From the IMG/VR virus record IMGVR_UViG_2531839527_000008: a stretch of DNA of 27,163 bases; one strand, written 5' to 3'. This DNA comes from a virus. Its lineage: Duplodnaviria > Heunggongvirae > Uroviricota > Caudoviricetes. The notes under the pieces were generated by a model. That model saw only the letters and a list, made by a program, of their open reading frames with translations. It was not told where the DNA came from and made no database searches. Below, one piece after another: positions 2,228-3,515 of the stretch (position 1 is the stretch's first letter; each line of letters begins with the position of its first letter). The position numbers and the translations under genes are program-made.

Positions 2228-2454
2228 CCAATAAAACCACATAAAAAACATATAATTATAATAAAAACAATTAGTTAATTTAATTTTTAATGCAGTGAAT
2301 TGCAATATTCTGCAACCTCCGCCGCCACTTTGCCGCCACTTAAAGCTTTATACCACACAGACTTTAGTATACCCGAGTGAAACGCTAACACATGAGGTAG
2401 TTGGAAAATTTCCGTATATGTTGTAATATTGATACGCATTATATGATTTTTACC

Positions 2455-2463
2455 TGATATAAT
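2455..2463 (+). promoter_or_regulatory. candidate extended -10 promoter element (TGaTATAAT) upstream of cargo ORF
   Basis: TG at 2455..2456, TATAAT at 2458..2463; no good -35; about 125 nt upstream of the GTG at 2590. Confidence 0.3.
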
Positions 2464-2589
2464 GTAATTATTAGCTTCAAAATTATTTTTGCACGAATCA
2501 GGTATTACCAAGTAGTTGTCAGTTTTTAAAAACCCAACATCCTAAAATTAGCATTGTTTTTTAACCACAAAACATCCACGGAGAAGAAC

Positions 2590-3399
2590 GTGTCAAAAAA
2601 GGATACAATCCAGATTATCGATATCAGGATGCAGAGACCAATCATAGCAAGAATAGAAGAAGAAAATTTAAATTTGACATTGCAAATGTCAGATAAAGCC
2701 ACATTATCTGGTGCGACAGTTAGTTTTTTCACCCCAAATAACGTTTCTATATTCTTATCCTCAGCAAAAAAAGAGCTCTCAAAATCCAATTCTATATATA
2801 AAAGTCTTTTTGGAAAAATACACAAAACCAAACATAAAAACTTTAAAATTTCCGACAAAGACCTGCCGAGACTCTATAATTACTTTGAATCAATTCAGAC
2901 GGCCATTATTTCTATGTATACTGCAATTGAGTCTTTTGCAAATATATGCATACCACATGATTATGTTTATGAAAAAAACAATGCCAAGGGAATCAAAGAA
3001 TCCTATAGCAAAGAGCTAATTGAGCGATATATACCAACAAGTGAAAAAATAGATAAAATCCTACCGTCTATTTTAAATTGTGATTCGCCTAAAGGTTCAA
3101 AACTATGGCAAGATTTTAAAAGCCTTGAGTCACTTAGAAATGACATAATTCACCCCAAGACAACAAAGAAAAACACAGAAACAAAAGAAGACTCATCTTT
3201 TTTATGCATTTTACTATCAGATGACTTTATAAAAAAAGTTTCCTGTGGATTTGATTTGGTATCTTATTTTTGCAAACAAGACACTACTCATAGTCTTTTC
3301 CCAATGGGTTTCGGTGAAATTGAACTTAAACCTGTCCCAATTAAAGCCGGTGACTTTGAAAAAGTTGATGATCATGATGAAATAGAATTACCATCATAA
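2590..3399 (+). CDS. AT-rich cargo protein with Rx4H motif (RNDIIH), putative HEPN-like RNase / abortive-infection-type protein
   Basis: Long ORF in AT-rich DNA; GTG start at 2590 preceded by GGAG 6 nt upstream (ORF-track longest form begins at TTG 2554); motif LESLRNDIIHPK encoded at 3136..3153; lies between attL and int. Confidence 0.55.
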   Translation: MSKKDTIQIIDIRMQRPIIARIEEENLNLTLQMSDKATLSGATVSFFTPNNVSIFLSSAKKELSKSNSIYKSLFGKIHKTKHKNFKISDKDLPRLYNYFESIQTAIISMYTAIESFANICIPHDYVYEKNNAKGIKESYSKELIERYIPTSEKIDKILPSILNCDSPKGSKLWQDFKSLESLRNDIIHPKTTKKNTETKEDSSFLCILLSDDFIKKVSCGFDLVSYFCKQDTTHSLFPMGFGEIELKPVPIKAGDFEKVDDHDEIELPS

Positions 3400-3400
3400 C

Positions 3401-3447
3401 AAAAAAACACAAACCATAAAGACGGCCATAGGTGGTCTTTATGGTTT
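3401..3447 (-). terminator. intrinsic terminator downstream of int (minus strand)
   Basis: Perfect 13-bp inverted repeat AAACCATAAAGAC/GTCTTTATGGTTT (3411..3423 and 3435..3447) with 11-nt loop; on the minus-strand RNA it is followed by a U7 run (A-run 3401..3407 on +). Confidence 0.6.
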
Positions 3448-3515
3448 ACAATAGACGCAGCCGTTATTAAATTTAAATCCAACAGCGTTAAAATAAACTA
3501 ACAATATACGCATAA

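Follow-up and report, generated by a model that had tools for sequence, protein, structure and literature searches.

The window analysed here, a stretch of 27,163 nucleotides (nt) listed in IMG/VR as virus record IMGVR_UViG_2531839527_000008, covers chromosomal DNA of Escherichia coli and a 186/P2-type prophage, in which an AT-rich cassette with a single cargo gene lies between the left attachment site (attL) and the integrase gene (int). The cargo protein very probably belongs to the HEPN superfamily, and the gene can be regarded, from its sequence, as a credible single-gene anti-phage candidate of a familiar kind. The defence reading favoured here, with somewhat better than even confidence, is that of a self-gated HEPN RNase that would act in abortive infection or exclusion. 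A HEPN-like defence gene at this position had been proposed in an earlier note on the same DNA, and that interpretation is supported, each of its checkable parts having held; the arginine and histidine of the motif are conserved, and no profile search assigned a non-HEPN fold. The features on which the argument depends are the following:

2341-3545, plus strand: AT-rich inserted cassette of ~1.2 kb, delimited by alignment with cargo-less relatives (boundaries +/-10 nt)
2590-3399, plus strand: cargo gene WP_001394629.1, 269 amino acids (aa), GTG start, annotated in RefSeq as a hypothetical protein
2929-2943, plus strand: E114-S-F-A-N118, a conserved acidic/polar pair in helix 89-120 of the model
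3136-3153, plus strand: R183-N-D-I-I-H188, the Rx4H motif

The hallmarks of HEPN domains are an Rx4-6H motif in which a polar N, D or H follows the arginine, placed where helix 3 ends, and a conserved acidic residue in helix 2, usually within Ex3[KR] (PMC3710099, Anantharaman et al. 2013). The earlier note had pointed to an LRNDIIH motif at 3136..3153, and RNDIIH is encoded exactly there. Conservation was assessed in two alignments, one of 26 close relatives and one of 110 diverse relatives (24-88% identity). In the diverse set R183 was found in 110/110 and H188 in 108/110 homologues, with the spacing fixed at four residues, and position 184 is occupied by N (88 homologues), D (11), H (10) or K (1); R183, N184 and H188 are invariant in the close relatives. 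Shuffling of the cargo protein produced Rx4H in 12.9% and R[NDH]x3H in 1.9% of the sequences; taken alone the motif is weak evidence, and what gives it weight is its conservation across homologues. Other nearly invariant positions of the diverse set are E114 (109/110), N118 (110/110), K153 (109/110) and P238 (110/110), and E114 is a candidate for the second active-site residue.

An AlphaFold model built from the 26-sequence alignment (pLDDT 80.1, pTM 0.77) predicts an N-terminal beta/alpha module (residues ~1-75) followed by a helical core (~89-230). The model contains a four-strand beta unit (18-47), a helix (51-74), a long helix carrying E114 and N118 (89-120), a beta-hairpin and helical insert (127-162), a further helix (171-187), a loop, and two last helices (203-208 and 213-230). 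The Rx4H motif is placed at the C-terminal end of the predicted helix 171-187 and is followed by the loop, which fits helix 3 of the HEPN core. The acidic residue expected in helix 2 would be E114, within the long helix 89-120, but here it forms ExxxN118 instead of Ex3[KR]. The structure prediction suggested in the earlier note as a check was favourable, with a predicted helical core and the motif at the end of a helix as in HEPN proteins. The predicted fold appears similar to solved HEPN domains, and the best structural matches of the model are HEPN toxins from toxin-antitoxin pairs.

Weak profile matches, obtained with two libraries, were almost all to HEPN families. In PADLOC the model RTasHEPN matched residues 102-188 (E 1.2e-4) and was also matched by 25/110 members of the diverse set, with further weak matches to CARF_HEPN, Cas13a and Csx1. 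In Pfam, members of the same set gave weak matches to HEPN_RiboL-PSP (16), Cthe2314 (13), DUF3644 (11), Apea (6), Swt1 (3) and AbiV (1), of which DUF3644 is a HEPN family (PMC3710099). In the profile check named in the earlier note no non-HEPN fold was assigned, and the HEPN matches were all below threshold.

Several results weigh against the HEPN defence reading. No HEPN profile passed its curated cut-off (13-20 bits versus 24-28), Foldseek comparison of the model with PDB and BFVD returned nothing at E <= 0.001, and searching PDB sequences with profiles of the two alignments (26 and 110 sequences) gave only chance matches. The conserved acidic motif is ExxxN, unlike the usual Ex3[KR]. The PADLOC check proposed in the earlier note was unfavourable, since no model of version 2 assigns the cargo protein to a known defence system, and local Pfam and NCBIfam scans of the protein gave no match. 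Finally, the evidence from genomic contexts comes from about ten loci, owing to the rarity of the gene, which is present in 19/5,426 complete E. coli genomes. Even so, that the protein is not a HEPN protein at all is very unlikely, since chance would leave unexplained why R, H, E114 and the N/D/H residue next to R are invariant over 110 divergent sequences, why the motif lies where the third core helix ends, and why the weak matches that recur in two libraries are almost exclusively to HEPN families.

The genes and sites that define the insertion are:

1655-2137: yfiB
2215-2227: attL core AGTTAAGACGCTC, overlapping the rplS stop codon and the codons just before it (minus strand)
2228-2340: phage-side arm of attL, aligned with the cargo-less strains SF-468 and EC6868
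2321-2341: direct repeat GCCGCCACTTT, two copies of an 11-nt unit, detected with TRF
3516-4556, minus strand: int, a 186/P2-type tyrosine integrase (Pfam Int_N and Phage_integrase)

The match to prophage-free E. coli stops at 2227, and the AGTTAAGACGCTC 13-mer is found again ~32.8 kb away, beside an intact rplS gene (ribosomal protein L19), at the attR of an almost identical genome (25223-25235 of stretch L007). Because host similarity ends at 2227 and the 13-mer recurs beside intact rplS, AGTTAAGACGCTC is the core of the attachment site (att), the prophage having integrated into the 3' end of rplS. The phage-supplied copy at attR turns the rplS stop codon TAA into TGA. The GCCGCCACTTT repeat, present in three copies in a Klebsiella prophage, is a candidate arm-type site to which Int would bind.

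The placement of the gene between attL and int, as claimed in the earlier note, agrees with the end of host similarity, with the coordinates of int and with the arrangement in cargo-less relatives, in which int lies beside attL. In SF-468 and EC6868, whose related prophages occupy the same site in the chromosome, 172 nt without a gene separate yfiB from the end of int, and ~50 genomes carry a related int without the cargo gene. The cargo gene is a genuine insertion at a point at which int lies beside attL in related 186-type prophages; it is variable cargo of the att-int interval, present in 19 genomes and absent from the two related prophages inspected. The cassette comprises a leader/promoter region, the gene, a hairpin and a replacement 3' end of int. 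To its left the phage att arm with the GCCGCCACTTT repeats is kept, while to its right the last few int codons come from the inserted DNA, and similarity to the int of cargo-less relatives begins near 3549. The AT-rich character of the DNA and the length of ~270 aa given in the earlier note were borne out: the G+C content is 31.5% in the insert and 31.9% in the cargo gene, compared with 51.6% in the remaining prophage in the window.

The same att-int slot is occupied in the Klebsiella prophage. In a preprint of 2026, the interval between att and int in P2-like phages is given as a minor hotspot for defence, with 3% of P2 systems (bioRxiv 10.64898/2026.02.27.708500). The slot is rarely used, but it has already been described, and the cargo is of a familiar kind from an uncharacterised family. 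The present case shows the capture of cargo at the att-int junction in a clean and datable form; an insertion at this junction must spare the Int arm sites, and here the last codons of int and its terminator were rewritten.

Homologues were found in diverse genomic settings. In Klebsiella variicola the gene is in a 186-like prophage with the same att core, arm and insert. In Serratia marcescens it is in a P4-like satellite (alpha-type primase, AlpA, Ash, an Ogr/Delta gene and a P4-type integrase), where the homologue, 84% identical, lies between delta and int, an interval presented in PMC9122126 (2022) as the main P4 defence hotspot. In Providencia it is in a lambdoid prophage, between the antiterminator Q and holin genes. 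In Acinetobacter pittii it is in an 8-kb mobilizable plasmid (MOBQ) together with a YafO toxin gene, and in Pseudomonas in an island with SIR2_2 and MvaT genes. Distant homologues from Simplicispira and a metagenomic contig are in arrays of short same-strand open reading frames (L019, 4906-9216, and L020, 1-16801), one of them beside a tyrosine recombinase (Phage_int_SAM_4) and an IS110 element, and the other holding VapBC and a helix-turn-helix antitoxin; by gene layout alone, attC sites not having been searched, these two arrays resemble integron cassette arrays. Chromosomal contexts in Duganella and Tenacibaculum contain no obvious mobile or defence genes and are uninformative.

In Morganella, where the left flank occurs in two different forms, the gene adjoins a RelA_SpoT gene pair, together with a truncated integrase. 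The segment at 9468-10605 of L004/L005, directly downstream of the homologue, encodes proteins of 118 aa and 259 aa, the latter with a weak RelA_SpoT match, followed by the truncated integrase. This two-gene unit may be a small-alarmone-synthetase toxin system that shares the island with the HEPN-like gene.

The cargo gene is alone in every context, with no conserved neighbouring gene. DNA similarity between the E. coli and Serratia copies runs from the ribosome-binding site to the stop codon, indicating that the mobile unit is essentially the open reading frame, and this solitary gene has moved across at least five kinds of mobile element. In this analysis the genomic settings favour a defence or exclusion role. 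According to the same preprint, most of the unannotated genes tested from P4 hotspots protect against phages (bioRxiv 10.64898/2026.02.27.708500).

Two other functions can be weighed against these settings. The gene could encode an RNase for the phage's own lytic cycle or for counter-defence, acting in host shut-off or degrading a host immune RNA or signal; the Providencia homologue, between the late antiterminator Q and the lysis genes, would allow co-expression with late genes. This is highly improbable, however, given that the gene is missing from most related 186-type prophages (the ~50 genomes with a related int), that a P4-like satellite, a plasmid and cassette-like arrays, which lack a lytic programme of their own, carry it as well, and that a tblastn search of 50,697 deposited phage genomes, with the cargo protein and a long-form homologue as queries, found no homologue. 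The second function is that of a HEPN-like protein other than a defence nuclease, for instance a regulator that binds RNA or nucleotides, or a factor of lysogenic conversion with an effect on host physiology. Non-catalytic HEPN domains that serve as binding modules are known (PMC3710099), the protein is not recognised by any defence model, and the Duganella and Tenacibaculum contexts would suit such a role. It is nevertheless unlikely, since non-catalytic HEPN domains typically lose the Rx4H motif (PMC3710099), whereas R, H, E114 and the polar residue next to R hardly vary here, and the gene moves alone among phage, satellite, plasmid and cassette-like settings.

The cargo gene is real and under strong purifying selection. 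In the E. coli genomes that carry it, every copy is at the rplS site and at least 99.8% identical to the others, while the orthologues of Klebsiella, Serratia and Morganella share 81-89% protein identity, with synonymous sites near saturation and a ratio of nonsynonymous to synonymous substitution rates (dN/dS) of 0.03-0.08 across the four genera. A first search gave 33 relatives, and an exhaustive profile search at E <= 0.001 gave 1,097 representative clusters (50% identity); many of these relatives are 400-480 aa long, with an additional N-terminal region of 140-200 aa. None of the relatives from the profile search, made in a set of 5.8 billion proteins, has a functional name, all being annotated as "hypothetical protein", and a literature search for WP_001394629.1 found nothing.

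Expression signals of the cassette were compared across genera:

2421-2447, plus strand: best-conserved candidate promoter, TTGTAA-15 nt-TATGAT (consensus match)
2455-2463, plus strand: candidate extended -10 element TGATATAAT (consensus match)
2579-2582, plus strand: ribosome-binding site GGAG, 7 nt before the GTG, kept in all four genera aligned
3411-3447, both strands: bidirectional hairpin between the convergent cargo gene and int

The longest open reading frame in the cargo frame extends from 2554 to 3399 on the plus strand (TTG start, 281 aa). The GTG at 2590 is supported as the start because the GGAG is conserved in E. coli, Serratia, Morganella and Klebsiella, because Morganella has ATG at this position, and because D11 and R13 are conserved (101/110 and 109/110 homologues), both being upstream of the next ATG at 2629. 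A start at that ATG, as in PHROG 17113, was rejected for the latter reason, and the TTG at 2554 was rejected since it precedes the conserved ribosome-binding site.

The gene had been credited in the earlier note with its own extended -10 promoter at 2455..2463. The element TGATATAAT is present there, but it is poorly conserved, being partly kept as TGATAAGAT in Klebsiella and absent from Morganella and Serratia; the block at 2421-2447 is better conserved and is kept in E. coli, Klebsiella and Morganella. Neither candidate was reported by a promoter scan, because the scan demands two hexamers with a 16-18 nt spacer. The hairpin shared with the convergent int, another claim of the note, was confirmed as a perfect 13-bp inverted repeat (3411-3423 and 3435-3447) that folds on both strands, with -22.4 kcal/mol (z -6.8) on the plus strand and -18 kcal/mol (z -4.1) on the minus strand. 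Seven consecutive U come after it on the minus strand, in keeping with a putative int terminator. The Klebsiella prophage has a hairpin of different sequence in the equivalent place.

The ~250-nt leader in the cassette is partly conserved in three genera, and it bears on another explanation, namely that the protein is a stabilisation (addiction) toxin whose antitoxin is an unrecognised small RNA or peptide in the cassette, so that the gene would keep the mobile element rather than act against phages. Besides the leader, the structural matches to HEPN toxins of toxin-antitoxin pairs and the homologues found beside toxin-antitoxin genes, in the Acinetobacter plasmid and one cassette-like array, are consistent with this explanation. 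It is quite unlikely all the same, as no conserved second open reading frame travels with the gene, DNA similarity with Serratia starts only at the ribosome-binding site, and none of the ~ten contexts has a neighbouring MNT-type nucleotidyltransferase gene. No antitoxin-type tandem array of the type III style was found in the cassette, where the repeats detected with TRF are the two 11-nt copies of the att arm and low-complexity sequence, and an Rfam search of the cassette gave no match. A partner gene or RNA antitoxin was rejected on these grounds: no conserved neighbour, no tandem array and no Rfam family.

For the favoured reading, a self-gated HEPN RNase, the following mechanism can be proposed. 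The product would be a stand-alone protein of the HEPN superfamily, whose gene is carried as a one-gene cassette by mobile elements, in their accessory slots. In single-HEPN proteins the active site is formed across the dimer interface, and a homodimer of the cargo protein would join two Rx4H motifs into a metal-independent endoribonuclease site, with R183, N184 and H188 plus E114 and N118 as its putative residues. The histidine and arginine of the HEPN Rx4H motif are needed for metal-independent RNA cleavage, which produces 2',3'-cyclic phosphate ends (PMC3710099). In the lysogen the enzyme would be inactive, probably held by the N-terminal module (residues 1-75) with its nearly invariant D11, R13, P17 and P49-N50. 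The enzyme would then be switched on by a cue from an infecting phage and, once active, could cut tRNA, mRNA or rRNA, so that infection would be stopped at the cell's cost, with abortive infection or superinfection exclusion as the presumed outcome.

A broader proposal, possible although we hold it only tentatively, is that the relatives form an unnamed clade of self-contained HEPN RNases, of ~1,100 clusters, in which a conserved N-terminal beta/alpha module (DxRxxRP...PNN) senses the infection and gates nuclease activity, and that they constitute a new mobile single-gene anti-phage system. Such a system would be able to move among prophages of the 186/P2 and lambdoid types, P4 satellites, small plasmids and cassette-like arrays. 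Should the gene prove protective, a compact 810-bp single-protein system would be added to the defence catalogue, and a function would be provided for ~1,100 hypothetical clusters and probably also for the distant YopA_C domain of SPbeta. The understanding of HEPN defence would be unchanged unless the trigger or target were unusual. The practical use lies in a 1.2-kb cassette that is ready for cloning, with R183A, H188A and E114A as clear point mutants.

The window starts in chromosomal E. coli DNA, which differs from strain E1535 by 5 mismatches in 9,600 compared bases. Apart from yfiB, the host features are:

1-265: end of an IS1 element (IS1B) that truncates yfiR, identified from an almost identical annotated genome
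413-1639: dgcN

The gene yfiR, in the region 1-412, encodes the periplasmic repressor of the DgcN/YfiN diguanylate cyclase, and its truncation by IS1B could lead to derepressed synthesis of cyclic di-GMP in this lineage.

The prophage is of the 186/P2 type, with a CI repressor carrying 186-type domains (Pfam), a DUF2511 gene, CII, Fil and the GpA replication endonuclease, and P2-type late genes for portal, terminase, capsid and tail. The DUF2511/YebY-like gene (4579-4917, minus strand; annotated as 112 aa, with the longest open reading frame extending to 4989) lies between int and the CI repressor gene. It corresponds to PHROG 2950, of unknown function, and has no PADLOC match; its presence in the Klebsiella prophage and the cargo-less relatives as well marks it as a conserved accessory gene within this group of phages. 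A gene for a 334-aa protein without Pfam or PADLOC match (11902-12906, minus strand) adjoins the portal gene, in the interval from the replication genes to portal that is the canonical main hotspot for defence in P2, and is a candidate cargo gene. A gene for a pentapeptide-repeat protein of 291 aa (21859-22734, minus strand; Pfam Pentapeptide_4, E 4e-19; no PADLOC match) lies on the opposite strand between a virion-morphogenesis gene and the baseplate gene V, and looks like a cargo insertion in the late-gene region.

Among known systems, the HEPN-MNT toxins (Shewanella SO_3166, PDB 5yep; 7ae2; 8xdj) share 2-14% identity with the cargo protein, which is twice as long, and no sequence-level match to them was found in the profile searches of PDB sequences. 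ToxIN-like type III systems have an upstream tandem repeat array, the source of their RNA antitoxin, that is absent from the cassette.

The sole curated family found on cargo-type proteins is PF27216 YopA_C, the C-terminal domain of YopA from the Bacillus phage SPbeta, through precomputed matches, which are flagged as weak and which many close homologues lack. In YopA, an RNKIVHP motif and an upstream conserved E in a helix align with the motifs of the cargo protein, with an hhalign E of 0.08 obtained with a single YopA sequence. YopA is likewise an uncharacterised prophage accessory protein, near a RES-domain gene, but it has 438 aa, with a large N-terminal region absent from the cargo protein; an extension of this sort is present in many of the 400-480-aa relatives. 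Literature searches on YopA with HEPN and on yopA with SPbeta found nothing. In SPBc2 (L016, 24673-27913) yopA adjoins yopB (helix-turn-helix) and yopC (RES domain), and the yopA-yopB-yopC region of SPbeta may be a cluster of toxin or defence genes.

Two specific identities were dropped: BxaP, which is a DUF4145 protein and was unmatched here (PMC10799925), and the HEPN gene of Gifsy-1, which is a different gene and had no effect in that study (PMC9879122). The cargo protein was not found among the systems that are named or tested in the main text of PMC9122126 and of Moura de Sousa et al. 2026 (bioRxiv 10.64898/2026.02.27.708500).

The stand-alone HEPN proteins of abortive infection (Abi) and defence, namely AbiD/AbiF (Abi_2), AbiU2, AbiV, AbiJ, ApeA and BxaP (DUF4145), are like the cargo gene in being single genes of mobile elements with a HEPN-type core. 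As here, they have the Rx4H motif and no antitoxin partner, and infection-triggered RNA cleavage is expected of them (PMC3710099, PMC10799925). No Pfam or PADLOC v2 model of these families matches the cargo protein over threshold, and the cargo family differs from them in its own conserved N-terminal beta/alpha module and in ExxxN, which replaces Ex3[KR]. The position of the cargo gene also fits that of P2/P4 hotspot systems, as these are described in the two hotspot studies, with the E. coli copy in the minor att-int hotspot of P2 and the Serratia copy in the main delta-int hotspot of P4.

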